The position numbers and the translations under genes are program-made. Positions 1,299 to 61,101 of a stretch of 64,000 nucleotides of DNA are shown one piece after another (position 1 is the stretch's first letter; every line of letters starts with the position of its first letter). The notes beneath the pieces were generated by a model, which worked only from the letters and a program-made list of their open reading frames with translations, searched no databases and was not told the DNA's origin. This DNA comes from Protoeuglena noctilucae (lineage: Eukaryota), in the NCBI GenBank assembly GCA_958009085.1, contig OY253670.1, forward strand, positions 868,001-932,000. Direction: 5' to 3'.

Positions 1299-4200
1299 AT
1301 GAGAGCGCTCCGCAGGCTTGTTTCAGCTGCCGCCTCGGCACTAGAATCCGAACGGCTGGCCTCATCGTCCTCATCGGCTGTGTCGACATCGGGATCGGGC
1401 GCGGGCGCAGGTGACGTTCTGCGCGGACTCGTCCCCGCCCTCTCGACTCTCGGGGGCCTCTTCGCGCCATCCTGAACGCATCGCCCGACTCCTTGCTTCG
1501 TGATGATTGCGCAGCGATATGGTACGTGTCAAGGAGGCTCGCGTCGACGACGTTCTGGCCAGCGTCCAGGCATCGCGACCCTCTGCGAGGAGCTGCAGCG
1601 GCCTCTGCCGCAATGTGCGTGCACCCCTCGTCTGTGAGATTCAAGTCTGGTGTGCCGGAAGCGGACGCAAGAGGCCAAACGCCGACGAGCGCTTCCCATC
1701 CCACGCCCGTGGCTGGAGGCAGTCCCAGGTGCCGCCGCTACGCGATGGGAAGCCGGCTGTATCCCCGCGCCTTCATGTTTACCTCTTAGAGCTACGTTAG
1801 CGCCCACTTGCAGACCCGGTCCATTGTCGAAGCCCAAGGACGGCATGGCAGAAGCGTATGCGCGTCTGGCCAACATGGATTGGGTCGAGGGCTCCTCGAT
1901 GGGAGGGCTGCACAGGGACGTGCCCGGAGGCGCTTTGCAGAGCGACAAGGAACGGGGCGCGTTCATCGACACTTACCTCCAGGTGCGTGGGCCTGCGAGC
2001 GGCAAGCCACCTTCCCAGCTGTGCAGGCGTCCCATGCTGGACCCGCTTGCAACCTTCTGCCCCGCAGAAGCAACCGTGGACGGCGGAGGAGCTGGCTGTC
2101 CCGACCACGAGTCACTTCCAGATCTCTGGCGAGTGGGGAGGTCCGTGCGTCATTGATGTGCGCCATCCCTGACTTGCCGCCCATGACATGCATCCGCGCC
2201 CCGTCTCCGCAGCGCACTACATCGGCAGCGTGCTTAAGCTCGTCGACAAAAAGGAGGTTCTGTTCACCATTTCAGAGGCGTTGCCGCGCATCGACGGTGA
2301 GCGCCGTGCTGACGCACACCCGGGTGCGGCTGCCCGGGGTTCGCGCTGAGCATCGCCTCCGCCGCCTTCGCAGTGCGGGAGAAAGTGAGCCGCAGGGGTG
2401 GCTCCGGGGGCAGCATCTTGCTCTATGCCAGCCACGACGACGGGACCCCTCACGACGCTCCGGCTGAGCCCGTGGCCCATGGATACCGGGGCTCGATTGA
2501 CGAAGCGTTCCAGAGTCCAGGCGTCATGCCCAGGTGAGGGCGCCGTCGACTGACCCACTTGTTTGTTGGGCGAAGGCTGCATGACCCACCTTGTTGCATC
2601 GTGGCCCATCGCGCTTGATGCCTGGGACCTTGGGGCGCGTGAGACGGTCTCTGCGTGACGCGCAGGGGTGTCGTCGTTTTCGACTTCGGGGCCGTCGTCA
2701 TGGTGGGGCTGAAGAAGGACACGGAGCACGAAATCGTCGACACGTTGACCAGGTAAGAGGTCGCGCCCGCCAACCTGGCATCAGTAGCCACGCCGGTGTT
2801 GGCATAGCCCTGGGAGACCGGAGATGGTCTTTCTGACTAATTATCCGTTCATTCTCAGGCTGGGGAACGAGGCCGCGGACGCCATCAAGATCCGGGAGGG
2901 CGAGCTGGCGCTGGGGCGCGTGCGAGGCGCACCCGGGCACCTCGCGGCAGAGACAGAGGACTTCGTCGGTGAGTGGTCACTGGGGATCGAGCAGTGACAG
3001 CCGCGAGGTGCCGAGCGTGACTTGATCCCTTCCCACGCCAGGCCAGGCGACGGGTCCTGTGGTTCAACCGGGCTCCCTCCGGCAAGCGGCCTTTCTCAAC
3101 CAACCAATTGCGCCGCACTTCCTCGCAGTGGACATCCGGCCGGCGCAGCACACTTTCTCCATGCTCAAGGGCAACACGCTGCGGCTGCAGACCATGGATG
3201 TGGACTCGGTCCGAGTGGTGGCCACCGCATTGGCACAGGTGCGCGCCAATGCCCATGACAGATGTCCATGACAGATGCCTTGGTGACTTGAAAGCGAGGC
3301 ACACGTCGCCTTCGTGCTTCTACAAAGCTTTGTAAGGTTCTCACACGCTCCTTTGGCTCAGCAGAGCGTGGCTATGGACCATTATGCGCGTCTGATCGAC
3401 AACATGATGGTGGAGTTCGAGCGGCTGTCCATACGGCTGCAGGCTGCGGGCGGCAAGTTCAACATTCCCAAGAAGAAGCTTTTCACATTGGTGAGCGGCT
3501 GCTGTGCACAAGGGCATTGAACTGGCGTGCACAGCGACCGAGCGCATGACTGCCGGCTGACCGTTCTAGATTCTCTGCAAGGACTTGGCCACCACAGGTC
3601 GCCGAGACGAATCTTGCTATGATTGACGTCGTGAGGAACATTGGCCTGATGGAGAGGTCCGAGGTGAGGGGCTGCGAGGGCATGTGCGCGGCCTGTGTGG
3701 CGCATGCAGTTGATTGTGCGGTACCGAGCGTCGCAAGCTCGGCTCGCTATCGTCTGACCGGCCCTCCCTCGCAGCCTGCTTGGAGGGAAGAGCGCTACGA
3801 CCACCTGTGGGAGGCAGTGCGCAAGGATCTGGAACTCATTGACCGGTGACCATTGACAGGCATAGACCCCGTGCGCCTTGTCTACGGCCCATCGAGGCAC
3901 TCCACTTTGCGTACCCGTGCATAAGCGAGCGTGGACAGCACCAGGCCCACAAGCGCACCGGGATGCGGCGCGGCCTGCACGCCCCGACACGTGCTGCCCT
4001 CGTGCTGTCTCCAGGTTTACCACGCTGAAGCTCAAGGTCCAGATGATCCAGGACTCGTCCAAGGTGTACCTGGACATTCTGAACAACAAGCGATCCGACA
4101 TGCTGGAGGTCATTATCGTGGTCCTCATCGCGCTCGAGACCGTCGTCATGCTCTTGCAGATCGGCGTCGACTCCGGGGCCATCGGTGAGCCGCGGGACCT

Positions 4201-4498
4201 CGTCTGCTCTCCGATGTCGGAGCCACGCGTCCCCAGTCGCGCTCAGCGACCGTCGCTGCCGTCGTGCACCGCCCTCCGCCGCAGCTTCAGAGTTCACTAT
4301 AAATACGGCGTTACACCCCCTTTGCGTTTGCTACCCGCCGCAGCTTCCGATTTCATCAAGCACCCCGGCCAGAGCCTCCTCCGCGGCATCCTCATCCCCG
4401 CATATGAGGCCATTCGCGGACGGCCCATCGAGCCGGGGTCTTTCCTCTGGGTCCTAAAGACCGACTGGGACGCGTTGGAAGGCGAAGAGGAAGACTAG
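1299..4498 (+). CDS. RMND1/Rmd1 (DUF155) family protein, probably mitochondrial, about 11 introns
   Basis: Arg/Ser/Ala-rich N-terminus MRALRRLVSAAAS. DUF155 motifs VVVFDFGAVV, ALAQSVAMDHY, LMERSEPAWREERYDHLWEAVRKDLEL and LNNKRSDMLEVIIVVLIALE. Exons join in frame. Confidence 0.85.
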
Positions 4499-4670
4499 AC
4501 TGGGGCCGCACCGGCGACCATGCTTGTGCCTGGTAGCCACTGCGCTCTTCACACGCCGTGCTGCGATGCACGCGGCTGTTCGTCCACAGCCCGCAGCTGG
4601 CCTCCTATGCCCTGATGCTCCGCCCGGTGCTTCTCAAGCACGCATTGCCCCGTGTTGTCAGCACGTTTCG

Positions 4671-6902
4671 TCACTGGAGGTGGTCGTCTAGCCACGCCGC
4701 CCGTCTGTGGAAGAAGTCCACCAGGGCGTCGATCTCGGCCTCCCAGGAGCCCAGGTACGGGCGCAGGGGGATCTGGAGGCCGACTGCGGGTGCTCAGGAC
4801 CCGATACGGTCAGATACACGGGAAGAGCGTTGACAGAGCGCAGGCGTCGGGATGTGCGCCATTCGTGGTAACATGCTGCACAGCCCAGAGGTCCCTGGCA
4901 GCTCGCCTGACTGGCTCGTGGATGTCGCCGGATTCCAACGTGCTGCGTTGCGGTCCACGGGCCCTCCGCTCAAGGGCTTCACCTCAGCCCGCACCGCAGC
5001 CTCCAGCGCTGGGAGGAGGAGGGAGACGACATGTGCTGTGAGCCGCACCAGTAGACAAACCAAGTTGCACTTAACGGTGTGCATCACGCTTCAGACCCTT
5101 CTGCCACACGTCAGGCCGCCAGTCTGACTCCCGCATCGCCCTGTGTCGCTGGCATCGGTGACACTCACCGGCGTTGGACCAGGCCCCACGACGGAGCGCG
5201 ATCCATCGGTCGCGGGTGCGGGCGCGGAAGTCGGGGACTTTCCAGAGCAACTGAAGCCACTGCGCGATCGTGCTGCGCCCGACGCAAGTGGGGTCGAGGA
5301 ACCGCAGCTTGGCGACCCCAGGGGACCCCGGCGTCCCCAGGTCCATCCCGCAGCAGATATTGAAGTCCCACACGGCGCCCATCACCAGCGGGCCACCTGA
5401 GACCAATGTTCAGATATCAATCTGTCATAGGCTGGCCGAGTCAACAGAGGTGTTTCTGAACCGGCCTCGGAGGATGTGACACGTGACGTCACCTCGCTCG
5501 CGGTGGGCGTAGACGCTGGTCATGTAGGCGTCTGGGTTGGAGACCAACTCCTCGACGAGGACGTAGTCGATCATGGTGTCGACGTCCAGGACGTGATGGA
5601 GGCTGTCCAGGCCCCGACAAGCTGCTGGGCCAGAGAAGGCGGTGACGTCAGGGGTGGCACTGGCGCCTGCATTTGGGGTGCTTGAAGAACCAGAAAACCC
5701 CGTTCCCGGGCACAGACTGCGGATGCTGCGGTCGAGGTCGAGCAGCCACCCATGGAGGTCAGCCAGGCTGGCGGAGGAGACGTCCTTCTTGCCGGGGTAC
5801 TTTACGATGAAGTTGCTGGGCCCCACCGAGACGGCCGGCCCGTCATCCTCATCACGCGAGTCCAGGAGACCCTGTCCTGCGTCCCATGACAGGTGCATGC
5901 GAAGACTCGCCATTTCAAGCACAGGTGCTGACAGACGCAAGAGATTGTCCAGGCCGCTGGAAATGCCCACCTGCCAGGTACTTTGCCCACGCCGCATCAC
6001 TCTCTGCCGCGCTGATCTCAAAAATCGTTCCCTGGGCGCCTGCAGGCGCACCCGACTTGGAGGAGTGGCACTAAGGCAGCAGCATGCGACTGGCAGGGCC
6101 GACATCCACATCTAAAGACACTCACCGACATTCACCCTGTCCTTTCCCCTCTCAATCTTCTCCATGAGCACGTACACGCCTTCGTACGCCGCGGCCCCCA
6201 GCAGGGCCGTGGTCAGGTCCCCAGACCCGACGTAGAGCTCGAGGAATGACGTGCGGGGCGCCCAGTGCCCGGTCTCGCGAGCGAGCCGGAAGGTGACGGC
6301 GTTGCGGACGAGGCTGGTGTCCAGGAATGGGCCATTGAGTGCCCACGAGGAGCCCGGGGGCTGCCCAAGGAGGCTGACCTCAGTGGCCGACGCCTGCGCC
6401 GACCGCAAATCGCAACGATAATGTCTTGCTGGGCGCAACAGACAGACAGGGATCGGGCAACGTCAGCGCCTCACCCAGTCATGGTCTTTCGTGTGCACGG
6501 ACCACTGGTGTTTCGGGAAGAGGCGGGAGGACCGCCCTCGGTAGTGGACCGTGACTGGCTGCTTGTCCTGCACGGCGCCGCCGCGTTGACACTGGGTGGA
6601 GACGAGAGTAATGACGGTTGACTATCGATGTGGTAGGGGCTCGGTGTCGGTGAGCTGGCTTGTGCGACGCAGCGGGGGCCAACAGTGTTTTCATTCAGCT
6701 CCCAGTGGTGCTGCTGTCCCCGAGGTCGCCGCCTTACCACTAGCCAGCCGTTCTCGTCCGTAGAGGGCTTCATTTTAGTCGTTGTGACGAGCGCCGCGAC
6801 CGTGATGGGGCTGGATAGCGCGAGGAAGGGCGTGGTGGGGGCTCCAGAGATGCAGCGCGCGAGCAGGGCAATTGCCCACAGAAGCGCCAGGAGAGTCATC
6901 AT
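4671..6902 (-). CDS. Secreted CotH-family (spore coat protein H-like) atypical kinase
   Basis: Signal peptide MMTLLALLWAIALLARCISG. CotH-like motifs FPKHQWSV, WALNGPFLDTSLVRNAVTFRL..GHWAPRTSF, YEGVYVLMEKIER, IDYVLVEELVSNPDAY, GAVWDFN and C-terminal EIDALVDFFHRRAAWLD. TGA at 4671-4673. Confidence 0.85.
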
Positions 6903-8837: not shown

Positions 8838-8932
8838 CGAGGCCACCTTGCTTTGCCGTTTGGTCGGTACGTGCTGTGTGCCGTCAGAATGTTTGAATTG
8901 AGATAACGATGCGCTGCGTCGCGCGTCAGGAC

Positions 8933-11652
8933 ATGTTTGCGCAATTGCCTCCGCCAGCAGAGGTAGAGGACGTGTGTGCAGACCTCGCATGTCATGGAAA
9001 GGGAGAAACATTGTGCGCTTTCGTCAGCATCTCTCGCAATCAGGTGGGCGCCAGCACCTGGCGGTCATCTGGCGGTGGAATCATATCGGGTCTGAGGACG
9101 GTCAGTTGTCCCTGGAAGCCGGGGAGGCGACGCTGCGTGCGGCCTGGCGGGGCTCGCTGGACAGAGGCTCGGAATTCTGCGCGATGTGGACGGGAGAACC
9201 GATGCGCTGCCTCACATTGTCGCAGTTCTCTTCGCGACGCTATCAGAGCCTGCATCGGCCCCTTGGGCCTCGACGTGCTCGTGAAAGACGAGGTGGGAAC
9301 TTCCCTCATCACCAACTCTGGTACGAGCGTTCTGCGGGCGCTTCCGGTGCACCACGGAATCGCGCGACTTTGTCTCGACGCCACGCTGAGGCGAGTCGCT
9401 GCGCCGTCCTGGAGCCTCGGCGCAAGAACCGTCCACGTCATGGCCCTGCCACCACGCGACCTGCTGCACGCAGGCATGTGGCGCGCCACGGCGACGGCGG
9501 TTCTTCCCTGTTGATAGCCATCGCGGAGGGCGTGCGCCTGGTGGACCGCGGCACGAGCGGGCCCCATGAGCGACGCTGGACGGTGCAGGCCCTGCAGAGG
9601 GCCCTGCACGACGTCATTCCGAGCCTCCTGGACAGCTTCTTCCGTGACGCGTCCGTAACCATTTCCCTCAGCAAAGAGCGCCACACCGCGCCTTGCGGGG
9701 ACCCTGTCCTGCAGGTGCGTGGGCTGCTTGGCCGCTGGTGGCGCAGGTGCTGGCACAGATTTGTGACGACTGCCCGCGATCGCTGGGTCGCAGGCCCTCG
9801 TCCTCACGTCGCTCGCTGGCAAGTTCGGGCCCACGACGCCCATTCACCTCACCAATCTCCTCGTGGACATCGTGCAGCGGGCATGGACCGCCCGCCAAGC
9901 GACCCTTGAGGATGCCATCCGGGGTTTGCTGCAGCGCCCCCCCTGGACGATCCTCCCCGGGGGTTCAGGTGCGCCAGACTGACCGCAGAGCAACTGCAGT
10001 CCTTACCAACGAGACATAAGCAGGGACGCCCTCACTCCGACCACGCAGTCACGTCGTCGCGAGTGGTCGCGGGCGTTGTGCTGGAAGCCTCGCTGCCGGC
10101 GGCGCTCACGGCGCGCCTGCAGGCGGAGTCGCTGTGCAATGGGAAGGTACTGGCTTTGGACGCGGGTCTGGACGACAGCGACGTCGTGTTTGGGGCTGGG
10201 ACCCGCGCGTCCATCGCCGCCGCGACCCCGGAGGTTGCACGGGCGACGCTGGCGGAGGGACAGCGCAGCGTCGCGCGCCGCTTGACGCTGCTCCGCGCGA
10301 GGGGCGTCCGTGTCGTCGTTTCGACCGCCCCGGAGTCCGAGCTGGTGGCCGGCATGGGAGCGGAAGCAGGGGTGCTTGTGCTTCCCGGCGTGCAGCCGCA
10401 TGATCTGGAGAGGGTCGCCAGCGAGACGGGGGCCGGTGTGTGTGCGTCCAATCAGCTGACCGACCTCGCTGAGGCCACCCTTGGCACTGGCGGAACAGGC
10501 GAGCTGGCCGGGCTGGGTCTAAGTTCGTATGTGCACTTGCCGTCTTGAGGTCTGGCTGTGAGGCGAGGTATCCCGTCTCGCTCACTGGCGCAGTGCGTTT
10601 CTTGCGACTTGGTGGTCGCCTGGGCGTCCACCTGTCAGGGCCGGCGTCCTCCGAGTTCAGTGTGCTCTTGCAAGCGCCGACACAGGCGCTGGGGAGGCAG
10701 TGGGTGGCTGGCATGGTGAGCGCGTGGGCGGCGCTGACGACCCCTTTCCCGCTGACGGCAGCCACGCAGATACCTGTCCCTAACTGTCGCTGGCCTGCAG
10801 GTGCGCTCGCTGCGCGTGCTGTCCTCGGCGTGTGACGCGGGAACGGCCGACGCAGTGCGTGTGGTGCCCGGCGCAGCAGCGATGCATGCGCTGGCTGCGG
10901 ATGCGCTGGAGCAGGCGGCGACAGGGGGCGCCGTGGCCAGAGAGGGCGGCTTGCCGGCCAAGGCGTCTGGTTTCGATCACAACAGACCGACCTCTCCCTG
11001 CCACGAGCGGTCATCATCGCCCTTTGCCCATGATCCCACCATGTCACAGGCGCTGCGATGGGCGGCGAGGGCCCTCCGCGCCGTCCCCTCAGCCCTCCAT
11101 GCGTCCGCAGTCGCGAGTCTCCCAGCCAAGTCCCTTCCCGTGAGGCTGGTGGAGGGCAAGCTGGTGCATACTGGCGCTGACGTGGCGCCGCAGGGACCAG
11201 CCAGCCTCATCGGTCATCCCTCTTGCTGCGCGTGCCCGTACGTGCGCCCGCGGAGCATGGTCGTCCCGGCGTTGTCTCCCAATGCCTCATGCGCCTGTGC
11301 AGCACTGGAGATCGAGCGTTGCCGGCACGAACCGGGGTGCAGTGCGCAGCGGGATACCCGCGGAGGCTGTGAGGGGGCATCCACAGCCACTGATGCGCAT
11401 CGCGAGGGCAGGTTTGATTTCAAGGGCCTGCTCGCCGACCCAATGGCGTGGGGCGTGGTGGAGCCAGCGAGCGCCGTGCGAGCCCAGCTAGAGGCCGCCC
11501 TGTCCGTCGCGGTGCAAGCGTGCCGCGTGGACGCCGTCCTTCCGGCACGGGCCAGGCCGGGCATGCGCTTGGGCCCAGACTATGCACCACGTGTGCGCCG
11601 AGGCGGGGGGCATCGTGACCCAGAGGACAGGGATAGTTCCGAATCTGACTGA
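8933..11652 (+). CDS. BBS10: Chaperonin-like Bardet-Biedl syndrome protein, BBS10-like (divergent CCT/TCP-1 fold); first exon uncertain
   Basis: IRACIGPLGLDVL..LITNSGTSVLRALPVHHGIARLCLDATLRHVARHGDGG lines up with the recalled BBS10 N-terminus (SCCVGPEGRQVL..LLEALHLEHPIARMIV..TGDGA). Also SSRVVAGVVL, SVLLQAPTQAL, VVPGAA and C-terminal GVVEPAS..CRVDAVL. The canonical CCT GDGTT motif is absent. Confidence 0.7.
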
Positions 11653-15314: not shown

Positions 15315-16703
15315 TCACTGCGGCCTGGTGACCACCCGCAGCCCGGCCTCCTTGACGTAATCCGCCCCGGTCTTGACCGCGTCGATCAGATTGGCCTCGG
15401 ACTGCGACTGGACGATGCCGTCGATGATCCCGTACTCGAGGGCGTCAAGCGGCTGCATGTACAGGGGCCGCTGCATGTCGCGGTCCAGCTTCTCCGGCGG
15501 CTGCCCCGTCGTCCGGCTCATGATGGAGACGAAGTCCTTCTTCTCCGCCAGCACCTCCTTCCACTTGATCTGCACCTCGGTCGCCTGCGGGCACGCCGCG
15601 ACGCGGGGGCTGCGTCCGCCGCGCGCGCTCCGGGTCCGGCGCATCGGTCCCGACAAGAACAGTCGCGGAGCCGGTCGGCGGCACCGCGCCACCCGGCCCC
15701 TGCCCTCGCCTGCCGCGCGCCCGTCGGGGGTACCCTGGGCTGGTGAAGCATGGCTGTGGCGTGAGGGAGCATGAAGCGCTTGCCCTTGGTGCCCGCCGAG
15801 AGCAGCATGCAGGCCTGCCCGATGGCGACGCCCACCCCCACCGTGTGGATGTCATTCTTGACGTAAGACATGGTGTCGAAGATGGCCATGCCCTCTGTCT
15901 CGAAGCCCACCGTCTCCCCGTCCGCACGCGTGCACCCAGTCGAGTTGATGTACAGGAACATGGGCTTGCGCTGGTCCCTGCGTTTGTTACGAGCGGATGT
16001 GCCCCGTCAGAGATAATGGCGCGCGTCCAAAGCCCTCACCAGCCCTCTGCCCTGCGCGCGTCGGCCCCTACCTGTACTGCAAGTACAGCAGCTCCGCCAC
16101 GATGAGCTCCGTCACGGCCGAAACGAGCGGCATGCCGAGGTACACGATCCGGGACTCCAGGAGGAGGGAAGGGAGGTCTGGCGGGGGCGTCTGGGGACAA
16201 GGGCGGCGAAGGCGGCGGAGGATAGATACGCGGCCGGAAGCACGTCATCGCTTCCTCCCGCGGCGAGGCAGGGCCGACGCACCCGCGGCTTGTGCTGGTC
16301 GGACGACGACGCCACCGCTGCGCCCGGGGCCCCCGTGCCGGAAGCCACCACCTCCAGCCCGTGGGACAGGCGCTGGTCCCCAATCGACTGCATGGACGCC
16401 CTCACGCTCCTATCCGGGGTCCACAGATCCAGCCGGGGCAGGTCCTCTGCTCGGGTAGGGGGGGGGAGTCAGCATGTGGCGTTCCGCAGCAGCGATGGCA
16501 CCGCTCCACGGCTGAGCTCGCAACAATCGTCAGTACAGTCATCTTGGGGCCGCCCTCGCGGCTCCCCCGGGCCCCAACACGACACGGTCGGCACCTGCCG
16601 ATCCCCGGGCGCGCACGCTGCCCCTCCTCCCCGCCGCCGGCCGCTCCACCCGCGGCGCGGCCAGGCATTGCCCCCGGACCGTCGACGCGACGAGTCCAGA
16701 CAT
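15315..16703 (-). CDS. CLPR3: Plastid Clp protease non-catalytic subunit ClpR3-like
   Basis: Transit peptide [78 protein letters not shown] (ClpR insertion) and AIGQAC, which lacks the catalytic Ser. Confidence 0.88.
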
Positions 16704-18079: not shown

Positions 18080-20872
<2,793 letters not shown>

Positions 20873-46000: not shown

Positions 46001-49000
46001 TGCTCTCCGCCCCCGCAGCAAGGCCGCGGCCGTATCTAGCACGCGTCTGATGGACGACCACGCCTCGCGGCAGGGCGAGGTGGCCCCGGACCTGGCGACC
46101 GACAGTGGCCCGTTGTCGGCCTCCCTCAACCACCTCTTCCAGACCCGCTCCGCCCTGATCGAGCACATCGTGGGGCAGCTGGTGCACGCGGCGGTGACGG
46201 ACGAGGACTCGGCGGTGCGCGTGGCCATCCTCCGGGAGCTCAACCGCGCCCCCGCCCTCACGCCCAGCCTGGCTCAGCCCGAGGCACTGCGCTGCCTCTT
46301 CATCGCGCTCAACGACGAGTGCATCGACGTCCGCTCCCTCGCCGTCTCCATGGCCGGGCGCCTCAGCCAAGTCAACCCCGCCTACTGCCTCCCGGTGCTG
46401 CGTCGGTACCTGATGGTCACGCTCTCCGACGTGCGCAACTCCCCCGACGTCGCCAGCCAGGCCCAGTCGGCCACGCTGCTCGGCGTCCTGGTCCGCAGCG
46501 CCCCCGCGCTCTCCGCTTCCTACATTCGCGCCGTGGCCACCACTTTGGCCACGCAGCTGGCGGCGGCACTGCGGGCGGTCCAGGAGCACGCCTCCCCACC
46601 CGAGGCTCACTTGCTGATGCAGCTCCTCGTCACCGTCGGGTGGCTCGCCGAGGTCGTCAACAAGGCACTGGCGCCGTTCGCGTGGGAGCTCATCAACGTG
46701 ACGATCGAGGCGAGTCGGTGGGCCGTACGGGGGCGGTGGCATGGGTCATGTGGTTTGGCAGCTCAGACCCGGTGGCAACCTAGATGTATCTATGCGTTGT
46801 TTCTATATGGCAATGCCGTACATGGGGCCTTGCGATGGGTTTCCTAAACACACACGGGTGCCCTGCTAGTTGCCGACCCGCCGACCAGTACCAGGCGATC
46901 GGCTGACTTGCATGATACGCCCCACCCTGCCCATGTCGTTTCCGCAGGCCATGGAGGAGTCGAGCGGCCTCGTCAAGAAGCACGTGCCAGTGTCCACGCT
47001 GAGTCAGCTGGCCAAGCACTGCACGTGCGCCATGAAGCCGTACCACCGACACCCCCGCCTCATGCCACTCCTCTTGAGGCTGCTGCACGGCGGAGACCAG
47101 AGGTGAGACATGTCGTCTGAAGTGGTTCCTGAGAGATTGCGACCCAGCCTGCAGCCGCGAACAGTCCCGCTGCATGCACGGCTTAGCCCGACTTCGCGTC
47201 CACGCCAGGGCTGCCCTGCGCAGTTGCACTTGTTGTTATTATACCCTCTCGCATCTTCTCATCATGCTCCCCGCTGCCACTTGGCGGGCAGCTCAGGCAA
47301 CCCTGCCCCGTGCCATCATGCATACTGCTTTCCGCCGCCGCAGGACGCGCCAGGCCGTGATCCGGGCCCTGGGGGTCCTGGGGGCCCTGGACCCGTACAT
47401 CCACAAGCTCAACCACGCGTCCCTGTCGGGAGAGGGCAGGCTGGAGCAGGAGGGCGTGCGGGCGTTGAAGAACCGGCAGGAGATGCCCAACCGTGCCGCA
47501 CGCAGCCGAGGCCCGCCCTCGCTCATCGAGATGGCGGCCCTCAGTCAGGCGGGGGAGGGCGAGGGCATGGAGCGGCCCTTGCAGGAGGAGGTGGAGCTGA
47601 TCCCCATCACAGGTGAGCACTGCCTTTGGGGTCTTTCACTCCATGGATACCCCGGCTGGTGCTGCTGGCTGCGTCACGCCGCTCGAGCGTCCTTTCTGCT
47701 ATCAAGGCACCGCTACGCGCCCGCAGGCCTCATGACGTCGTCCCCGGACTTCTTCCCGGCGGTGGCGATCAATGCTCTGGTCCGCATTCTCATCGACCCC
47801 AGCATGACGTCCCACCGCAAGGCGGCCGTGGTGAGTGCGTGACTTGAGAACATGGCGGGTCAGGATGCGATAACACGCAACATGTGCCATACTAATCTCA
47901 TCGTGCCATCGTCGAGAACGCAAAGCGCGTGATAAGCCAGCACGTATAAGCCAGCATCTGTCAAGCTCTGTCGTGTCCCGCTGCACTGCACTGCACCTCG
48001 CATCGCCATCTCCGCCCCGCCGTCGCCCCCGCAGTCCTCCCTCATGTACATCTTCAAGGCCATGAAGATGCAGTGCGTCTCCTTCCTCCCTCGCCTCCTG
48101 CCGCTGCTCCTGCAAATCGCGCGAGGGCCCGACGCCACGCTGCGCAGGGGCCTCCTGGAGCAGCTGGCGCTGATCGTGTCAGTGGTACGCCAGCACTCGC
48201 GCAAGTACGTCGGGGTCCTCATGGGCGCCGTCGAGGAGTTCTGGGCACCCGGGTCGCCTCTCATCCCGACGCTCCTGGAGTTGGTGCTGCAACTGAGCCT
48301 CTACGCAGCCGGTGAGTCAACGTTGCCATACGCTGGTGTAATAGTACAGGATCGCCCCACTCTCTTTGTCGATTGTATCCAGAGTTCCACTGTGTAACGA
48401 ACCCAACATGCAGATAGTATGGGCGCCGCTATGCACATCGCACCACACTCGCGCCCGCTCCCAGACGACATGCCCAAGTACATCCCGATGCTGCTGCCCA
48501 AGATCTCTGGCATCTTTTCCGAGGCCAACCGCACCTCCAACTACGCCTTTGTGCTGCCCACCCTCAACGTCGTCACCTGCCTCGGTGCCGCCCTCGAGGA
48601 CTTCCTCCACATCCTGCTGCCCGCCATCGGTGAGTGCATGGCGGCACAGCTTAGCTCGACATATCTCAGCTCGATCGTTGAGCTGTGCTCCATTGTGCAT
48701 GCGATGTGCGCTTGGGCATGCGATGTGCCCTGGGCATGTGAAGCGAGCCTTCAGTTCCGCGGCCTGCTCTCCGCCCGCAGTGGACTTCGTGACGCCGTCG
48801 TCCGGGGCTCCCCAGGAGGTCCACATGGCGGCCCTGCAGACCATGTGCCGCGTGCTGCCGAGCATACGCCTCACGGGCTACCTGTCTGCCGTCGTCCACC
48901 CCCTCATCCGCGCCCTTACGGACCCCAACACTACTCCAGGCGAGCGACACGCGACTCTCTTCCAATCCATGGACATTCCCGCAACATCGCTGGCAATGGG

Positions 49001-52000
49001 GTCCGAGCGTGCTAGCCCCAACTGCGCGGCAGGGTGGCCTTGCCCTGACACCCATTGCGTCCCTTCCCACCAAGTGACCCTCGACCCCTGCTCCCGCAGA
49101 GTACGGCGAGGAGATCATGCGCGCTCTGGCCGTGCTGCTGCCTGCCGTGGGTCCTGAGTCGGCGTTCTTCGGTCCGCTGATCCTCAAATCCATGGGCGAC
49201 GCGGCAGGGAAGACGAGGCAGGCGCAGAGGGTGATGAAGCTGCTGGCGGCGGCGCAGGCGGGGCCGCTGACAGAGGACGTAACCGTGGACGGCCTGGGTG
49301 ACGGTGCGGGCGACCCCGGTGCGGGACCGGGCCCGGGGGCATCGACGGCGCCGGAGGGGCCCATGGAGACGCTGGTGGTGAACGAGATCCACTTGCGCCG
49401 CGCCTGGGTGTCGTCGGATCGATCGACGAAGGAGGACTGGGTCGAGTGGCTGAGGAACTTCTCCGTCGAGCTGCTCAAGGAGTCGCCCAGCCCGGCCCTC
49501 CGCGCGTGCTACCAGCTGGCCCAGGCGCAGCCCCGCATGGCCCGGGAGCTCTTCGCCGCGGGGTTCGTGTCCTGCTGGCTGCAGCTGACGCAGTCGACGC
49601 AGGAGCAGCTCGTGCGGTCGCTGGAGGCAGCCCTGGCGTCGCCCAGCATCCCGCCCGAGATCGTGACGGCGCTGCTCAACCTGGCAGAGTTCATGGAGCA
49701 CGACGAGAAAGCCCTGCCGCTCGACTTCCGCACGCTGGGCGTGTTGGCCGAGAAGTGCCAGGCGTACGCCAAGGCGCTGCACTACAAGGAGTTGGAGTTC
49801 GAGTCCACGCCCGACGCGGCGGTCGAGCCGCTCATCTCCATCAACAACCAGCTGCACCAGCCGGAGGCGGCCATCGGGATGCTCGAGTACGCCCGCCGGG
49901 AGCTGCACATGAACCTGAAGGACTCGTGGTACGAGAAGCTGCAGCGGTGGGACGAGGCACTTGAGGCATATGCACGGCGCATGGCGGGGCTGGCGCCGGG
50001 GACCCCCGCGTACCTGGAGGCGCTGCTGGGGCGGCTGCGGTGCCTGGCGGCGTTAGGGGAGTGGGACGAGCTCGCGCGGCTGTGCCGGGACTCCTGGGCG
50101 ATGGTCGAGCCGTACGTGCGGAGGGACGTGGCGATCCTGGGAGCCTACGCCAGCTGGAACATCGCGAAGTGGGACGACATGGCGGACTATACCGACTCAA
50201 TTAAGGTCCGGAGCGGCCAGGACGCCCCCGCCACGGCCCTCTTCCTGAGCGCGGTGATCAGCGCCAAGCAGGGCAACTACGCGGCGTCGCTCAACCTGGT
50301 GGAGCGCGCCCGGGACACCCTCAGCACCGACCTGGCCGCGCTGGTCGGGGAGAGCTACGACCGGGCCTACACGGACGTCGTGCGCGTGCAGCAGCTGGCC
50401 GAGTTGGAGGAGGCAGTGGACTACCTCATGGCGCAGGTGAGGAGGGGTAGGGATGGGGAGCAGGGGTGGTAGCATGCATGGGTGGAAGTATGCTTGGGCC
50501 CCTGCAAGCCCCTCAGCAACGAGGCCTGGTTCTGACCTTAGCGCTAGGTGGGTGGCGTCACACGCGACGTGCGTTACGCTGTCACGAACACACCCAATGA
50601 TACCGCAACATATCGCTGACATATCGCTAATACTATCTGCTGCTCTGTCATTAGCAGGAGCGCGGCACCCCCGCGGACGCTGACCGTTGCCAGGCGATCC
50701 GCGAGCTGTGGCAGCAGCGGATGCACGGGGTGCAGAAGAACGTGGACGTGTGGCAGGCGGTGCTGTCGGTGCGGTCGCTGGTGCTGCCGCCCGAGGGCGA
50801 CTCGGAGACCTGGGTCAAATTCGCGTCGTTGTGTAGGAAGAGCGGCCGCGTGCGGCAGGCACAGCGCACCCTGTCGCGGCTCATGGAGGCGCCTCTGGGG
50901 GTCCTCGAGCGCCGCCGCGTGCAGTACTCCTGGCTCAAGCACCTTTGGTACACCGGGCAGAGGGACATGGCGTTCAAGGAGCTGGCGGAGCTCAGGCTCG
51001 ACCTGGTGCAGGCGAGGGATAAGGCATGGGGGTGTTGTGCACAGGCGAGGGATAAGGCATGGGGTGCCTGGTCACGCAGCAAGCACGGTGGTGGAGCGGC
51101 AGGAATTGAGCTAGAGGGTCTGTCTTTATTGAGGCAAATGTGCGGGGCATTGGCTGATGCACGGCCGAGAGCGGTGCGTGCAGGCAGCGAGCGCAGACAA
51201 GGGCGGGGCGGTCGACGGTGGGGCGCACGGCCAGCTGACACCCGCGCCGTCGTCGCGGGGCCTCAACGTCCCGACTTTCACCGACGACGCGGACCGCAAG
51301 GCGAGTCTTCAAGGCATTTATGCAGTGCCATGCATCGTTGGTTGGTTCCGAAGTGGGTGTAGTTAGTTCTCTGTGTAACCAACGCCGCCGTACCTGTCGT
51401 GACTGCTCCTTATCCGCCCGGCCCCCGTTGCCGCCACCACCACCACCTCTCTTCTACTCTCTCCGCAGCCGTCGGCCGGCACGCCGTCTCTCCTGTCCCG
51501 CATCGCTCTCCGGCTGGGCCTGTGGCGCTGGAGCCGCGCGCAGGGCCTCCTGGACGACCAGGTCGTGGGCGACGTGATCAAGCTGCTGCACCAGAGCACG
51601 GTGGACTCGCCGCAGTGGGGCAAGGCCTGGCACAACTGGGCGCTCTTCAATGTGGCGGCCCTGAACCACTTCACGCGCGGCCCTGAGGGGCAGCCCAGGG
51701 ACGTTTCCGAGGACGAGATGCACCATTTGAGCAGTACGTACGTCACGGCGGCCATCCGAGGGTTCTTCCAGTCCATCGCCCTGGCGCAGTCGGCTCCGGC
51801 GGACGCGAGGCCGCACGGCCCGGCCCGGGGCGCGGGGGCGCTGCAGGACATCCTGAGGCTGCTGACGCTGTGGTTCAACCACGGCTCGACGCCCGAGGTG
51901 CAGAGGGCGCTGCAGGAGGGGTTCCTGTCCGTGCGCGTCGAGACGTGGCTGGCGGTCATCCCGCAGATCATCGCGCGCATCCACACCAACATCCAGGCGA

Positions 52001-54962
52001 GATGGGTGGAACGATGTTGCAATTGGTGCGAGGGCGAGAAGTGCGGGAAGGCGATGAGCCAGGACGCGGGCTGTTGGTTTGCTTGGCTGAGACAGAGGCA
52101 GACGGTGGGCAACACGCATGGTGGCGTTGCAACAATGGCTTTGTCGTAAAACATCCCATGCCCGTCACCGCCTCCGCAGCCCGTGAAGGAGCTCATCCAC
52201 CAGCTGCTGGTCCGGATCGGCAGCAAGCACCCCCAGGCCGTCATGTACCCGCTGATCGTGGCCAAGAAGTCGTCATCGGTGTCGCGGAGAGGCGCCGCCA
52301 ACCACGTGATGGACTCGCTGCGGCAGCACTCGGGGAAGCTCATCAGCCAGGCGCAGATGGTCAGCAACGAGCTCATCCGCATGGCCATCCTGTGGCACGA
52401 GATGTGGCACGAGGCTTTGGAAGAGGCGTCTCGGCTCTACTTCGGGGAGGTGAGGGAGCGGGTTGGTGGCTGTGCGAGGTGCAAGATAGATCGCGGGTGT
52501 ACTAATGGAAGGGTCAGATGCTCTCACAGTCGGGCTGACCGTGACTTCCAAACTCGCCCTCTGTTTCGCAGAACAACATCGACGCGATGCTCGCCACGCT
52601 GCTGCCCCTCCACGAGATGATGCAGCCGCAGGGGCGCAGTGGCGGCGAGGCGCCTGTGACCGACCACGGGGCACTGCAGCCCACTCTCCGGTGCGTGACG
52701 TGCACAAGGGGTGCTATTCATTGCATCCACGTCGCGCAGTGTGCGTTGCGTCGTATGGATCTGGTCGACGCTCCTCGCCATGCCGCACTCGTCTATTACA
52801 TCGCCCTCCCCAGTCACCTCCGTCACCGCTTACCCCATCGCAACTAACCTTCTCATGCGCAGGGACGTTGTGAGCCACGGCCCGACCACCCCGATGGAGG
52901 TCTCCTTCGTGCAGCAGTACGGCCACGACTTGGGCGAGGCGCACTCGTGGTGCCTCAAGTTCATGCAGAGCCGGAAGGACTCGGACCTCCACCAGGCCTG
53001 GGACCTCTACTACCACGTCTTCAAGCGCATCTCCAAGCAGCTGCCGGGACTGACGTCACTGGAGCTGCAGGCCGTGTCGCCGGCGCTCCTGGCCGCCAAG
53101 GACCTGGAGCTGGCCGTGCCGGGGACGTACATCGCGGGGGAGGCGGTCGTGAACATCGCTTCATTCGGGACGCAGCTGCAGGTCATCACCTCCAAGCAGC
53201 GGCCGCGCAAGCTGACGGTCCGCGGGAGCGACGGTGCCGTGTATATGTTCCTGCTCAAGGGCCACGAGGACCTGCGTCAGGACGAGCGCGTGATGCAGCT
53301 GTTCAAGCTGGTCAACACGCTCCTTGCCACCGAGCGCTTCACGGCCGAGCACGGCCTCTCCATCGCGCGCTACGCCGTCATCCCCCTGTCACCGAACTCG
53401 GGCCTCATCGGGTGGGTGCCCAACTGCGACACCCTCCACGCCCTCATCCGGGAGTACCGGGACGCCAGGCGCATCTCGCTCAACATGGAGCACCGACTCA
53501 TGCTCAGCATGGCGCCTGGTGAGTGCTGCTAAGTTCGTTTAACTGAACCTGACCACCGCGTGTTGGGCCACCAACTGCTTTGGGGTTGCTTCTTCACTTG
53601 CCTGGTCTCAGAAACACACAGTCGCCCTCTCAGCGTTGCTGTGCGTCCGGCCCGCCAGCCTGACAGTCAGCCCCTGCGCCTTGACAGATCGCCCGACCGC
53701 CAGACTTACAACAGCTACCTTTCCACGCTTTTCCGCAGACTACGACCAGCTGACGATCATCCAGAAGGTGGAGGTGTTTGACCACGCGCTCGAGTCGACC
53801 AGCGGGGACGACCTCCGCAAGGTCCTGTGGCTCAAGTCGCGCACGTCCGAGGTGTGGCTGGAGCGCCGCACCAACTACACGCGCTCCCTGGCCGTCATGT
53901 CCATGGTCGGCTACCTCCTGGGCCTCGGCGACCGGCACCCGAGCAACCTCATGCTGGACCGGTACTCGGGGAAGCTCCTCCACATCGACTTCGGCGATTG
54001 CTTCGAGGCGTCGATGCACCGCGAGAAGTTCCCGGAGCGGGTGCCCTTCCGGTGAGGGGTGGGGAGGGCGCGGGGAGGAGCGCTCGCATCGCTGGGTCTA
54101 TCTGTGCTGTCGTCTGTACGGGACTGTCTATAGATTTCTGTGTCTATCTGCTTACCTGCGCAACTTCAATGCGTGAAGTGCTGGGAAGCAAGCTGGGCTG
54201 GCCTGGGTTTCTCAACTCTGGTGAGGCCGCCAACCGCTGCATTGGTGTCGGTCTTGCCTCGCAGACTCACGCGGATGATGACCAAGGCGATGGGCGTGAG
54301 CGGCATTGAGGGGATCTTCCGCATCACCTGCGAAAACATGATGAAGGTCCTGCGCCTCAACAAGGACTCGGGTGCGTGTTTGCATTGCAGCATCGGGCGC
54401 GGGCGTGGCCTTGCGAAGGCGGGTACTGTGGCAATGCGTCGACAACCACCTGACCCTTGCAGTCATGGCCATGTTGGAGGCCTTCGTTCACGACCCGCTC
54501 ATCAACTGGAGGCTCCTGCATGCCATGGAGCACCACGTGGGGGTGAGCCGAGGCCTAGCTGTCTTGTCGCGCATGGATGCAACCAAGTGGTGATGTGCGG
54601 GACCTCAGGTCGACCTCAGGTCTAACAAAGCCTGTCACATGCTCGATAATTCGGTCCCCGTTCCCACACCGCAGGGTCCGGGGGCGGCGCAAGGGCAGGG
54701 CAAGGACGGTCCGCCGGGGCCCAACGCGGACCCGGCGGCGGGCGTGACGGCGATGAACGCCGCGGAGGCGTTGAACGAGCGCGCCGTGGCGGTGATGGAG
54801 CGCATGTCGGACAAGCTGACGGGCCGCGACTTCGCCGTGGAGGGCCACGTTTCCGACAAGCACACGGACTCGGTGGCGTCCCAGGTCCAGAAGCTGATCG
54901 TGCAGGCCACGTGCCACGAGAACCTGTGCCAGGCGTACATCGGGTGGTGTGCTTTCTGGTGA
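43070..54962 (+). CDS. TOR: Target of rapamycin (TOR) kinase, about 27 introns
   Basis: HEAT repeats, [39 protein letters not shown] (FAT), [19 protein letters not shown] (FRB), [37 protein letters not shown] (kinase), and FATC end [13 protein letters not shown] followed by TGA. Confidence 0.98.
51009..51064. repeat. 23-bp direct duplication (CAGGCGAGGGATAAGGCATGGGG x2) at a TOR exon/intron boundary
   Basis: Copies start at 51009 and 51042. Confidence 0.8.
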
Positions 54963-56417: not shown

Positions 56418-56428
56418 AATAGCCACGA

Positions 56429-58226
56429 CTAGTGAACGGAATTCCGCAGCGTTGCTGGGCGCTCAGCCGCGGAGTGGAGGGCTGCCCCCGCCTCGCATCC
56501 ACGGTGCAGCCTCGGCACCCGGACCGCCCGGCACCGCCCTCCCTGCGAAGAAGCAAAGCAAACACGAGAACTTGCGACCTCGCGTGGCGTGCCGGGCGCC
56601 GTGCTACGCCCCGTCCTTTTCTTGCCAAGCGCCTCACCCCTGGGCTGCCCTCGCGCTTCACGGAGCTTGTCAAGGCGCACGGCCCGCAGCGCCGAGTCGG
56701 CCTGGCGCCAGGCCACGGTGAGCGCGTAGTGTTGTAAAATCAAATGCCACTCCTCGTACTCGTCCATCAGCTCGATGCCCTCTACCCGCGACACCTGCTC
56801 CGGATCGAGCCGCGTCTCGTACACTGCGAGGGGCGCCACGCAGGTCCTTTCACGCAGTTCCAACGCGTTGATGTAAGCGCGTCTACAATGCGCATGCCAC
56901 GCGACGACGTCTTGGGCGTGACCGGCCCTCATGGTGTGCCCCACGCGCCCCTCGCCTGTGTCGAGATCCAGGGCCTCCGCGGCGCCCCATCCGTTCTGCA
57001 GGAACCGCTCCTCGTGCGACCGGAGCGTTGGCGTCGCGGCCACCCCCAGCAGCGGCGCCCCGCGCTGTGCTAGGTTCTTCACCATCATCTTCCTGAGAGC
57101 ACGAGAGGGGGCGCCCCTGACTCGACACTGCCAGAACAAAACCACACCAGTCGCGGGTTGGCTCCCCGCTGCCTGACCCGCACCCGAACGCGTCGCTTGG
57201 TCGAACCATCTCGTAGACCACCGCCACCGCGTCCTCCAAACGCCCTGCGAGCCACCCCACGAGTGAGGAGCTGCACGCGGGGTCCATGTAAACGAGGACG
57301 CACTCGGCAAGCACGAACGTCGGCGTGCTGGCGTCCAGTCTCGCTGCGTCCAGGGCTGCCTCCACGGCCGGCAGCACCCGCAGGTCCGCCGGCACTACGC
57401 TGCGGGTGCGACGCAAGCATCGCGCATTTCCACTGGCTGACCGGTGGAGTCAGAGATGCCTGAAACGATAATACGTGCTCAGTGATGCCGTTTCAGCGAC
57501 AATGGCCCTTGTGGAGTGCAGGCACGCTCACCAGTACTCGTCAGACGTGAGTCGCCCCGCCCGCACATCCACATCCGCGTTCGGCGGCAGCATCCCATTC
57601 AAGCGCTCATGCTTCTTGATCGCCGCGACCTTCTTGCTCGTCACTTCTGGAAAGTCCACCTCGACCCACCGCACGCGAGCGGCGGCCTCCCCATCCGTGC
57701 TCTGCGCCCGGGGCAACGGGGACCCGTCCACGCCGCACACCCTCGGCGCCGAGCGGTGGGTGCGTCTCCGCTCCGTCACCTTGAGTTGGAACCATGCTGT
57801 GTCGTAGCCAGCTCCCAAGGACAGCACCTGGGCGCGGGGCCCTGCTGCCGCCAAGAACTTCCGCAGCAACGCCTCGATGGCGGTGTGACGGGCAAAGTAT
57901 CCACGATTGATCAAAGGCGGGCGCTTCTGCTGGCACGGAGGGGGCTGCCGTTGGGACCGGTGCGGGGAGAGAGGCGTGCTGGGGGCGTGGCCCTGGTTGT
58001 TGGCCATGCCTCACCTCGGCGCGGCGGACGAACAGCTCAACGAAGGGGTCGGGGAAGTACCCAAGGCGGACACACGAACTGTGGGGGCAGTCGAGAAAAC
58101 GCGTGAAGCTTTGCCAAGGAAGCTTAGCAAGGGTCGCGACACAGGCGGGCGAGTTCCTTACAGCTTCGACGTCTGCGCGTCGTCGTTGGTATCCTGGACG
58201 GCTCGGTCTGCAGCTTCAGGATCCAT
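56429..58226 (-). CDS. LCMT1: Leucine carboxyl methyltransferase (PP2A methyltransferase, LCMT1/PPM1); 3' end uncertain
   Basis: AVQDTNDDAQTSKL, PPLINRGYFAR, QVLSLGAGYDT, EVDFPEVTSKK, PTFVLAECVLVYM and IELMDEYEEWHLILQHY. Confidence 0.9.
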
Positions 58227-58872: not shown

Positions 58873-59846
58873 ATGTCGGACGACGACTGGGAGGGATGGG
58901 AGGACAAGGAGGTCGAGCTTCCGAACGTGAAGGCGCCGGTGGGGATGACGGCGACGGAGGCCCTGACCAAGGCGGGCGGCTACGACGCGAGCAAGTTCGA
59001 GGGGGAGGACGAGGAGGAGGACTCGCCCAAGTACGTGGTCCCGGAGTCGCAGCCGAAGAAGGAGCGCGTGAGCAAGTACGCGCACAAGGAGAACATGGGC
59101 GTGCAGAAGTACGTGGGGGACGTGACGGACAAGCTCGCGCAGCAGCGGTGAGCGGTCGCCACGGCGGCGTGGAATCCAGGTAGTTTGCTACGCAGCTGGT
59201 GCCATCAGCCACCGTGTCGCATCCGGCCTGGGCGCAGGCTACAGCAGGAGGCGGAGCTGGGGACGATCGCCGAGACGTTTGGCGCGGGGCGGGAGGTGAA
59301 TGAGCTGGACAGGTTCATCCCGGTGAAGAAGGAGGACTATAAGAAGTTCGGGAAGATGGTGGCGCAGCAGTACGTCGTGGTGCAGCACGGCAAGGTGGGG
59401 CCGCGCGTGCTGTCAACGAAAGCACGATTCGGCCTGCGGCTCAGGCGTGACCCCGCCCTCCCCGTTCGGCCCGCAGCCGGGAGCGCACTACAAGGTGCTC
59501 ATCAAGAGCCTGATGCGGGAGGTGGCCGAGCCTTGCACGGCGTCGGACCTGAGGGACTTGGAGACGGAGGTGGCGAAGCTGCGCAAGGAGAAGGCGAGCG
59601 GCAATGGGCTGGGGAGTTGCGTCAGCGAGAGCCGCGATCGAACCCCAGGTTGGTGAAATCATCGTTATGGCTTTGTTTGCGACGCAGGAGGAGAAGGAGC
59701 GGAAGGAGAAGGAGAAGATGGAGGCGAGCAAGAAGTCCACCAAGAAGAAGGGTGTGGGGCTGCGGGTGGAGCGGGATGACTTGACAGCGGGGCTCGAGGG
59801 CGACACGTATGCGCACTTGGACGACATTGACGACGACTTCATGTGA
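58873..59846 (+). CDS. eIF3j: Eukaryotic translation initiation factor 3 subunit J
   Basis: Acidic N-terminus MSDDDWEGWED, KFEGEDEEE, DKLAQQRLQQEAEL..ETFG, LDRFIP..EDYKKFG and C-terminal DDDFM followed by TGA. Confidence 0.85.
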
Positions 59847-59891
59847 GGGTTGAAGCAAGCAACGCCGATCAAGCGGCACGGGCTGCAGCTG

Positions 59892-61101
59892 CTAGGGAGT
59901 GGACAGCACAGCGAGCGCCTGCGCGTGCGCCGCGGCGTCTCCGGCTGCGAGGACCTCCCCTGTGCACGCCGCCTCCATGCCTGGCTTCCACCGAAGCGGC
60001 CGCCCCTGCCAGTCGGTGACCGCGCCTCCCGCACCCTGCGGCACGACACGCACGGCATGCCTCGCGCCCCGCACGCCGCGCCTGGCGCGAGAGTGCCCTT
60101 CTAGCTTTTGCGCTCCTCGCCTCGATGATGGGCACGAGGGCCATGTAGTCGTAAGGCTGCAGGTCCGCCTCGCAGACCAGGTCCAGGAGACCCATGGACA
60201 GCAGACCGTAGGCGTAGCAGTCGCACCCGAACATCGGAATCCGCACGGAACTCTGTCCGGGAGACGCGGGCGGACACGGGTGGGGGACCAACAGGCACGC
60301 GCAGGGCGCCGCGCACGTCATGTCGTCCGAGCGCCACTCACCGCCAAGGCCTCGTATCGCTCCTTCTGCTCCCCGCGGAACATGGCTGGGGTGGTGGACT
60401 GCATGTAAGCCAGGGAGAGCTCAGGGCAGGGCCGCGTGCGCACGGGGCGCCCGTTGTGCGTGCTGGGGCGTCCTGCTGCCCCGACCCAGCGCTCCTGCGA
60501 GATGCTCTGGTCGATGATGCCCAGCACGGGCATGCCGTCCACCGTCAGGGATATGAGCGTCCCGAAGAGCGGCTTGCCGATGATAAAGGACTTGGTCCCA
60601 TCAATGGGGTCGAGCACCCACACGTACCGCGCCCCGGCCCCGCGCCCCGCTTCCAGCCCCCGCTCCTCACTGTGGCAGGGCAGGACGGCCAGCGTCAGGG
60701 AGGCACGGGGTCACGACGCGACTGCCCCGGCCAGCCCCCCAGCGACCTGCAAGACCAGCCTCTCACCCGAACACGCCGTGGTCGGGAAACTGCTGCCTCA
60801 GGACCCTCCGCATGGCCTCCTCGGCCTCGCGGTCCGCCACAGTCACCGGCGAGTCGTCCTTCTTGTGGTCCACGGCCACGGGGGTGCGGAAGTAGCGCCG
60901 CGTGACCTCCGCGGCCGCGTCGGCCATCGCATGCGCCGCTGCCAGCAAGTCGTCGGTCACAGCATCGCCCATCGGAGCTGCCCGAACCGACAATTGTCGC
61001 AGCAGGTGTCGCTGTGCGCCGGCCTGCCGCGCAGTCCCCAGCGGGGCAATCCAGTTGGCTGCCCGGGACGCAGCGAGCCTCGCCGCGGGGACCAGCGGCA
61101 T
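59892..61101 (-). CDS. HISN7: Plastid histidinol-phosphate phosphatase (inositol monophosphatase family, HISN7/IMPL2)
   Basis: Transit-like N-terminus. KKDDSPVTVADREAE, FPDHGVFGEE, WVLDPIDGTKSFIIGKPLFGTLI, GCDCYAYGLL and LQPYDYMALVPIIEGAGG. Confidence 0.9.

Follow-up and report, generated by a model that had tools for sequence, protein, structure and literature searches.

The window analysed here is a whole stretch of 64,000 nucleotides of contig OY253670.1 (Protoeuglena noctilucae, assembly GCA_958009085.1), in which positions are counted from the first letter. It has a G+C content of 66.1% and is intron-dense, with about 140 to 150 introns predicted in 64 kb. Genes named through Pfam encode DUF155, CotH and chaperonin-like proteins, two ABC-2 transporters, two Clp proteases, ribosomal L33, an aspartyl protease, Snf7, PPDK, an ankyrin protein, an acyl transferase, RWD plus UPF0029, LCM, an eIF3 subunit, an inositol monophosphatase and a pyridoxal decarboxylase. 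The Pfam run covered 121 of 148 predicted exons of at least 60 nt and excluded the 27 exons of a TOR gene, which was recognised through homologues. About one quarter of the introns in the window begin with GC and end with AG, and these GC-AG introns are real.

Among introns with support independent of the gene model, 12 of 45 (27%) are GC-AG. The 45 comprise 15 introns joined in RNA (six GC-AG), 12 TOR introns placed by a homologue profile and not also by RNA (two GC-AG), seven PPDK introns placed by profile (three GC-AG) and 11 introns over which Pfam matches are continuous (one GC-AG). Introns excluded from this tally were those considered ambiguous (TOR 44319, 45605 and 54543; PPDK 27078 and 29780) and all introns of genes without profile support. 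The share is that of a single 64-kb window. The first-pass annotation of this DNA had listed 18 GC donors (hereafter the claimed sites, each denoted by donor position and strand) and had put the GC-AG share above 10%, an estimate that is borne out and turns out to be an understatement.

The gene model, a self-trained two-strand Viterbi model with a 15-nt minimum exon that weights GT and GC donors equally at its neutral prior, called 39 of 149 introns GC-AG. Under GC penalties of 3, 5 and 8 nats these numbers fell to 23 of 138, 21 of 138 and 12 of 137, respectively. A version without a minimum exon length called 43 of 159 introns GC-AG and found 17 of the 18 claimed donors, 15 of them at −5 nats. 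Several model introns were rejected: 54947-55441, which fused TOR to the next gene, is false, as TOR stops near 54960; a 51-nt GC intron in PPDK (28404-28454) is false and skips an in-frame TGA; and GC intron 41261-41320 is read straight through by an RNA contig. Because of such errors, the GC count of the model serves as an upper guide and is no census. The in-frame TGA itself (28405-28407, minus strand) lies within a coding exon of PPDK and aligns with the conserved Gly of 'GEYL' in the 45-homologue profile. It may reflect an error in sequencing, a nonsense allele or recoding.

Junctions in RNA contigs and homologue profiles

The RNA evidence consists of assembled contigs from marine metatranscriptomes, all from one study (P1). 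Of the words sampled from 46001-56000, 37-60% were present in four RNA runs, and all were present in four DNA-like runs. Contigs of three RNA runs and of one DNA-like run were aligned to 40300-60299, where nine of the 18 claimed sites fall, and 15 of 42 joints were examined, trying every placement within the stated ambiguity. Among the 15 joints listed, nine can be placed only as GT-AG and six only as GC-AG. The latter are the claimed sites 40567-, 51301+, 51997+, 59594+ and 60120-, for which the RNA junction check leaves no possible GT placement, and 51012+, which the first-pass list lacks and for which GC-AG is the sole splice pair among nine possible placements. The DNA-like run is colinear in one piece across 40300-60299 and carries none of the 15 joints. 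When spliced according to the RNA, the TOR frame is open over 3802 nt, through HTNIQ/PVKEL (a slash marks the splice border here and below), and the inositol monophosphatase gene reads PIIE and then GAGG across the 60120- joint. The claimed sites 41640-, 46710+, 48940+ and 56955- are not among the 15 joints listed. At 46710+ and 48940+, contig pieces stop or begin within 3 bases of the proposed borders: one piece (46018-46707) ends at the donor of 46710+ within a 2-base ambiguity, and another begins at 49097, which is the acceptor of 48940+ within a 3-base ambiguity.

Several further features of the contigs were recorded. In run X4, unspliced contigs extend over two GC introns (46345-46717, record 9, which crosses the donor of 46710+, and 59703-60114) and over one GT intron (54551-55258, across 54543-54674). 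Retained introns, nascent transcripts or carried-over DNA could each account for them, and the contigs give no splicing ratios or efficiencies. Contigs of three runs link 47510 to 56445 with 30 foreign letters between, and loose contig ends occur at 41146, 47493, 49085, 51639 and 56472, several of which continue into sequence outside 40300-60299; chimeric assembly, transcript overlap or exons located elsewhere may explain the links and the run-off contigs. Within 51009-51076 (plus strand), CAG and the first 20 bases of intron 51012-51183 recur 33 nt downstream. This repeat places another GC donor-like site, in frame, at 51045; in the RNA contigs, splicing occurs at the first copy.

Junctions were furthermore scored against profiles from 41 TOR and 45 PPDK homologues, using for each predicted intron all frame-compatible pairs of a GT or GC donor and an AG acceptor within 60 nt. 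The claimed GC donor wins this test at 46710, 48940 and 51997 in TOR and at 28945, 28383 and 27919 in PPDK (Table 1). The gene model retains 27919- and 28945- at every GC penalty; at 28383-, read-through meets a stop after 9 nt and the spliced reading fits the profile without a gap. Among nine RNA-confirmed TOR introns used for calibration, the true junction scored best in five, came within 2 bits of the best in three and fell 15.5 bits below a wrong alternative in one; the test is wrong for the RNA-confirmed GT intron 52691-52862. Where conservation is poor, at the TOR N-terminal introns, 51012 and 51301, it gives no information. Pfam profile coordinates are continuous over 11 further junctions, including the claimed 15709-, which the gene model retains down to −5 nats.

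Support is weaker for 15709- and for two further claimed sites, at which it comes from other protein similarity. The exons flanking 40009- cover residues 255-301 and 309-335 of the solved chain 2c2n_A, with an implied loop three residues shorter, and read-through there meets a stop after 33 nt, while the best GT donor scores −9.7. The exon upstream of 9391+ matches positions 4-50 of the Cpn60_TCP1 profile (E 1.2e-7), the chaperonin N-terminus; a stop lies 121 nt into the read-through, all three GT alternatives are poor and the frame of 9474-9714 is open.

The evidence for 2129+, 4906-, 39254+, 41640- and 56955- comprises the gene model and signal scores. The weakest of the claimed sites is 2129+, which is kept at −5 nats and lost at −8, and for which a GT alternative lies 12 nt downstream (signal sum 4.0 versus 8.8). 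At 4906-, the best GT alternative has a donor score of −7.7 versus 5.5, and Pfam CotH matches other exons. The exon downstream of 39254+ matches positions 23-42 of the Bap31_Bap29_C profile, which is a match of the exon and not of the junction. At 41640-, a stop lies 12 nt into the read-through and the one GT alternative, 9 nt downstream, scores −2.5 versus 5.0, and at 56955- the best GT donor scores −2.3 versus 6.2, with no Pfam match in either flanking exon. Across all 18 claimed sites, the flank score of the best frame-compatible GT donor is at most 0.5 nats, compared with 2.3-6.3 for the GC donor.

The heptamer AGGCGAG occurs 33 times on the two strands of the window, compared with 17.0 ± 3.9 expected from 100 dinucleotide-preserving shuffles, all of which stay below 33; the corresponding count for AGGTGAG is 19 versus 9.5 ± 3.2. 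By hand count, 18 of the 33 AGGCGAG matches sit on claimed, RNA-confirmed or model-predicted donors, so that the remainder is close to the number expected by chance.

Table 1. GC-AG introns of the window, with donor sequence (slash, exon-intron border) and evidence for each; RNA joints are given by contig run (X1, X2), and model refers to the gene model and its GC penalty.
Feature	Gene	Position	Strand	Donor	Evidence and remarks
Proposed GC-AG intron	DUF155/RMND1-like	2129..2212	+	TG/GCGAGT	gene model; the claimed site without exonic AG
Proposed GC-AG intron	CotH-like	4784..4906	-	AG/GCGAGC	gene model, only at the neutral prior and −1.5 nats
Proposed GC-AG intron	chaperonin-like	9391..9473	+	AG/GCGAGT	missed by gene model
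GC-AG intron	Clp protease-like	15585..15709	-	AG/GCGAGG	Clp profile 44-115 then 122-181, continuous
GC-AG intron	PPDK, LLHPQ/FQNP	27810..27919	-	AG/GCACGC	profile 129.4 vs 124.9 bits
GC-AG intron	PPDK, NAQ/GEDVV	28229..28383	-	AG/GCAAGT	profile 76.7 vs 65.7 bits
GC-AG intron	PPDK	28804..28945	-	AG/GCGAGG	profile 108.6 vs 97.3 bits
Proposed GC-AG intron	small coiled-coil gene	39254..39368	+	AG/GCGAGT	model at every penalty
GC-AG intron	malonyl-CoA:ACP transacylase	39891..40009	-	AG/GCGAGT	exons align with MCAT chain 2c2n_A
GC-AG intron	malonyl-CoA:ACP transacylase	40396..40567	-	AG/GCAAGT	RNA joint in X1, GC-AG placement only
Proposed GC-AG intron	tail of ankyrin-repeat gene	41555..41640	-	AG/GCGAGC	model down to −5 nats
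GC-AG intron	TOR	46710..46947	+	AG/GCGAGT	profile 56.0 vs 48.2 bits
GC-AG intron	TOR	48940..49099	+	AG/GCGAGC	profile 36.4 vs 13.8 bits
GC-AG intron, outside the first-pass list	TOR	51012..51183	+	AG/GCGAGG	RNA joints X1 and X2
GC-AG intron	TOR	51301..51468	+	AG/GCGAGT	RNA joints X1 and X2
GC-AG intron	TOR, HTNIQ/PVKEL	51997..52179	+	AG/GCGAGA	RNA joints X1 and X2; profile 178.7 vs 171.0 bits
Proposed GC-AG intron	leucine carboxyl methyltransferase-like	56824..56955	-	AG/GCGAGG	model down to −5 nats
GC-AG intron	eIF3 subunit-like	59594..59687	+	AG/GCGAGC	RNA joints X1 and X2
GC-AG intron	inositol monophosphatase family, PIIE/GAGG	60036..60120	-	AG/GCGAGG	RNA joints X1 and X2

Donor flanks, acceptors and intron class

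All 18 claimed donors carry the motifs reported for them (15 GCGAG, two GCAAG and one GCACG), and 17 follow an exonic AG as stated, the exception being 2129+, which is preceded by TG. Among supported donors, A at −2 occurs in 12 of 12 GC donors versus nine of 23 GT donors (Fisher p 0.0006), and the mean number of matches at six U1-pairing positions is 5.25 for GC and 4.30 for GT donors (Mann-Whitney p 0.0002). In the set confirmed by RNA, exonic AG precedes all six GC donors versus four of the nine GT donors. The ratio of GC to GT donors depends strongly on context: within AG/GYRAG it is 20:13 in the model set and 11:4 among supported donors, whereas outside this context it is 19:97 and 1:19, respectively (supported donors by hand count). 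Since the GC share in the full context is near the intronic C/(C+T) of 0.63, position +2 behaves almost as a free pyrimidine there and is held as T elsewhere. The preferred +3 base is G in GC donors (GCGAG) and GT donors (GTGAG) alike, and the GT donors among the RNA joints keep their usual variety of GTGAG, GTGCG and GTGGG.

The acceptors of the two classes are alike. All 19 listed GC introns end in GCAG, as GT introns do, and GCAG is the acceptor of all 15 RNA-confirmed introns of both classes, mostly as CGCAG. CTRAY branch-like motifs are missing from the last 60 nt of most listed GC introns. With GCAG at every RNA-confirmed acceptor and CTRAY scarce, the acceptor signal looks unusually sharp.

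In agreement with U2-type GC-AG introns, the introns of the window show removal from RNA contigs of sequences that start with GC and end with AG (six joints), a stronger donor flank and a GT-like acceptor. GC 5' sites are described as binding U1 with a stronger remaining consensus (PMC1557818), and the U2-type GC-AG introns of animals and plants share with those of the window both the terminal dinucleotides and a donor nearer to the U1-complementary consensus than that of GT introns (PMC1557818). They differ in frequency, as GC-AG accounts for 0.37-0.86% of U2-type introns in the five model species given there (PMC1557818) and about 27% (12/45) here, and in the +3 base, for which G is preferred in the window. 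With U12-type GC-AG introns, which have a GCATCC donor and a conserved branch motif (PMC1557818), the introns described here share the terminal dinucleotides but not these features: none of the 19 GC introns has ATCC(T) at donor positions +3 to +7 or, towards its 3' end, a branch site resembling TCCTTAAC.

Lineage and comparison with other algae

The best matches of TOR and PPDK of the window are from chlorophyte green algae, at 62-65% identity. A haptophyte (Emiliania-like) affiliation, first suggested by the marine RNA runs and the 66% G+C, was dropped because the TOR and PPDK exons match chlorophytes best. In a TOR tree, the window sequence lies inside a core-chlorophyte clade (support 96/95) on a long, unresolved branch. 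A close relative was not found in the collections searched (TOR and PPDK homologue searches, the TOR tree and a metagenome scan). In the metagenome scan, 80 loci matched the query exon, none at more than 52% identity and most of them in one uninterrupted stretch, and a TOR exon compared with a protein atlas matched generic PIKK-family clusters only.

A high GC-AG share is already described in other GC-rich algae, and the window adds one more case. For plants and animals, the first-pass figure of about 1% is correct (PMC1557818), but it overlooks these published algal genomes. Iwata and Gotoh (PMC3033335) give GC-AG shares of 39.6% for Aureococcus anophagefferens, 22.2% for Micromonas pusilla, 7.7% for Chlorella sp. 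and 2.7% for Micromonas RCC299, and call the origin of this abundance 'an enigma', with putative U1 5' ends that are canonical. Shares of about 55-60% are given for Emiliania huxleyi (among them 56% in PMC4028052 and about 55% in PMC7779022) and of 14-17% for pelagophytes including Pelagomonas calceolata (bioRxiv 10.1101/2024.10.30.620910). Like Aureococcus, M. pusilla, Emiliania and Pelagomonas, for which the sources cited describe high nuclear G+C and a large GC-AG share and favour composition as the explanation, the window combines a G+C content above about 64% (66.1%) with a GC-AG share far above 1% (12/45 supported, 39/149 in the model).

The window differs from these genomes in that it is from a chlorophyte, neither a haptophyte nor a pelagophyte, and in that it is intron-dense, whereas the M. 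pusilla annotation has 0.86 introns per gene according to the PMC6310983 supplement. 'Major non-canonical' shares computed from the same supplement are about 5.7% for Chlorella sorokiniana, 7.0% for Micractinium, 5.6% for M. pusilla and 0.7% for C. variabilis; annotated shares in the intron-rich Chlorellaceae are thus lower than that of the window. No report of a comparable GC-AG share in an intron-dense green alga was found in the literature searched.

Origin of the GC donors and consequences for annotation

The GC-AG introns of the window probably belong to the ordinary U2-type spliceosomal class, in a green alga of high G+C, and result from compensated donor flanks and GC-biased composition. 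In such a genome, GC donors would be recognised by an unmodified U1 5' end and later by U6, and C at +2 would mean the loss of one base pair with U1, so that a GC donor would work only where positions −2, −1 and +3 to +5 all pair. Under a composition that favours C, T at +2 would drift to C at donors that are strong enough, and weaker donors would keep T. With this demand on the flanks, the tight consensus would represent a filter on which donors can turn GC rather than evidence that a new recognition system has arisen. The second of the explanations offered by the first-pass annotation, that GC pressure drives GT to GC wherever the exonic AG compensates, fits these data, in view of A at −2 (12/12 versus 9/23) and the dependence on the AG/GYRAG context.

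Several points weigh against this explanation or the data behind it. The canonical U1 of the organism is deduced and does not come from its own U1 or U6 genes; a scan of the window at Rfam gathering thresholds returned no families, and hence no snRNA gene in the window. Published G+C alone does not predict the GC-AG share, as Micromonas RCC299 has 64% G+C and a share of 2.7% (PMC3033335), which implies that something beyond composition matters. For five of the 18 claimed sites the evidence is the gene model, the profile junction test is fallible, as its calibration on nine RNA-confirmed TOR introns indicates, and the RNA evidence all stems from one study and from assembled contigs, in which minor isoforms are hidden. 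Donor numbers are low (12 GC, 23 GT). Some of the supported introns were, moreover, first proposed by the gene model, which has a donor matrix biased towards consensus flanks; flank strength could be inflated by this in both classes, but not the difference between GC and GT donors.

Altered 5' splice-site recognition, the first of the explanations offered by the first-pass annotation, in which a U1 or U6 variant or a changed U1-C, Luc7 or Prp8 would render C at +2 almost equivalent to T, appears unlikely as the cause. In its favour, GC donors equal or exceed GT donors in the full-consensus context, with no visible cost of C at +2 there, and the published GC-AG shares are not accounted for by G+C alone (PMC3033335). 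However, the GC donors need more flank pairing, which would be unexpected of a machinery able to pair with C at +2 and argues indirectly against a U1 retuned in this way; the GT donors retain their usual variety; and the putative U1 5' ends reported in PMC3033335 are identical to the consensus in Aureococcus and both Micromonas. There is a slim chance that +2 is a free pyrimidine in full-consensus donors, where the GC share of 61-73% equals or exceeds the neutral 0.63, through a tolerance above the effect of composition in, for example, Micromonas RCC299, and a lineage-specific change of U1, U6, U1-C, Luc7 or Prp8 could underlie it. We also consider it improbable that GC donors are selected as weak sites for regulated splicing or intron retention instead of arising passively. 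GC donors are reported as enriched in alternatively spliced genes of human, nematode and Arabidopsis (PMC2490688) and as accompanied by high intron retention in Emiliania (PMC4028052), and run X4 has unspliced contigs over two GC introns; yet the same run is also unspliced over a GT intron and may simply contain pre-mRNA or DNA, contigs cannot yield splicing ratios, and selection is not needed where the GC share in strong context matches the neutral C/(C+T).

That the GC sites are chance AGGCGAG matches and nearby GT dinucleotides the true donors is very unlikely overall and already refuted for 11 sites. About 17 such heptamers are expected by chance in the window, the gene model does make false introns (54947-55441, 28404-28454) and five claimed sites have their support from that model, but six GC-AG junctions are fixed by RNA where a GT placement is impossible and five further GC donors outscore all GT alternatives by profile. 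The low flank scores of the GT alternatives at all 18 sites, the excess of the heptamer and its placement at donors (18/33) likewise speak against an artefact. An origin of the GC introns as copies of a mobile introner family carrying its own GC donor is extremely improbable. Three RNA-confirmed introns are each 172 nt long, and introner families are known in Micromonas, also a marine green alga, where introners are likewise short and some have GC donors (PMC4540971). Introners form repeated families, however, whereas each of the 15 RNA-confirmed introns matches itself alone in the window (blastn, word 9, E 1e-3), and one of the three 172-nt introns has a GT donor.

Gene finders restricted to GT donors would miscall about one intron in four in this organism, with shifted frames or truncated products for core genes, TOR and PPDK among them; annotation of Emiliania is described as hit by the same problem (PMC4028052). 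Annotation of this genome should therefore permit GC donors in the AG/GCRAG context. The window furthermore offers a small-scale view of how GT donors drift under GC-biased composition, with GC common where U1 pairing is full and nearly absent otherwise, and an intron-dense chlorophyte joins the few GC-rich algae in which it can be asked why GC-AG shares vary at similar G+C.

Two arrangements of neighbouring genes were also observed. Within 54675-56417 (plus strand), the TOR gene, with its stop near 54960, is closely followed on the same strand by the RWD plus UPF0029 (IMPACT-like) gene. The two ABC-2 type transporter genes (11936-14503, minus strand, and 21676-24310, plus strand) flank the aspartyl protease gene and share the same exon layout and Pfam coordinates; in their opposite orientation, the pair looks like an inverted duplication. 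All well-supported introns of both transporter genes are GT-AG.

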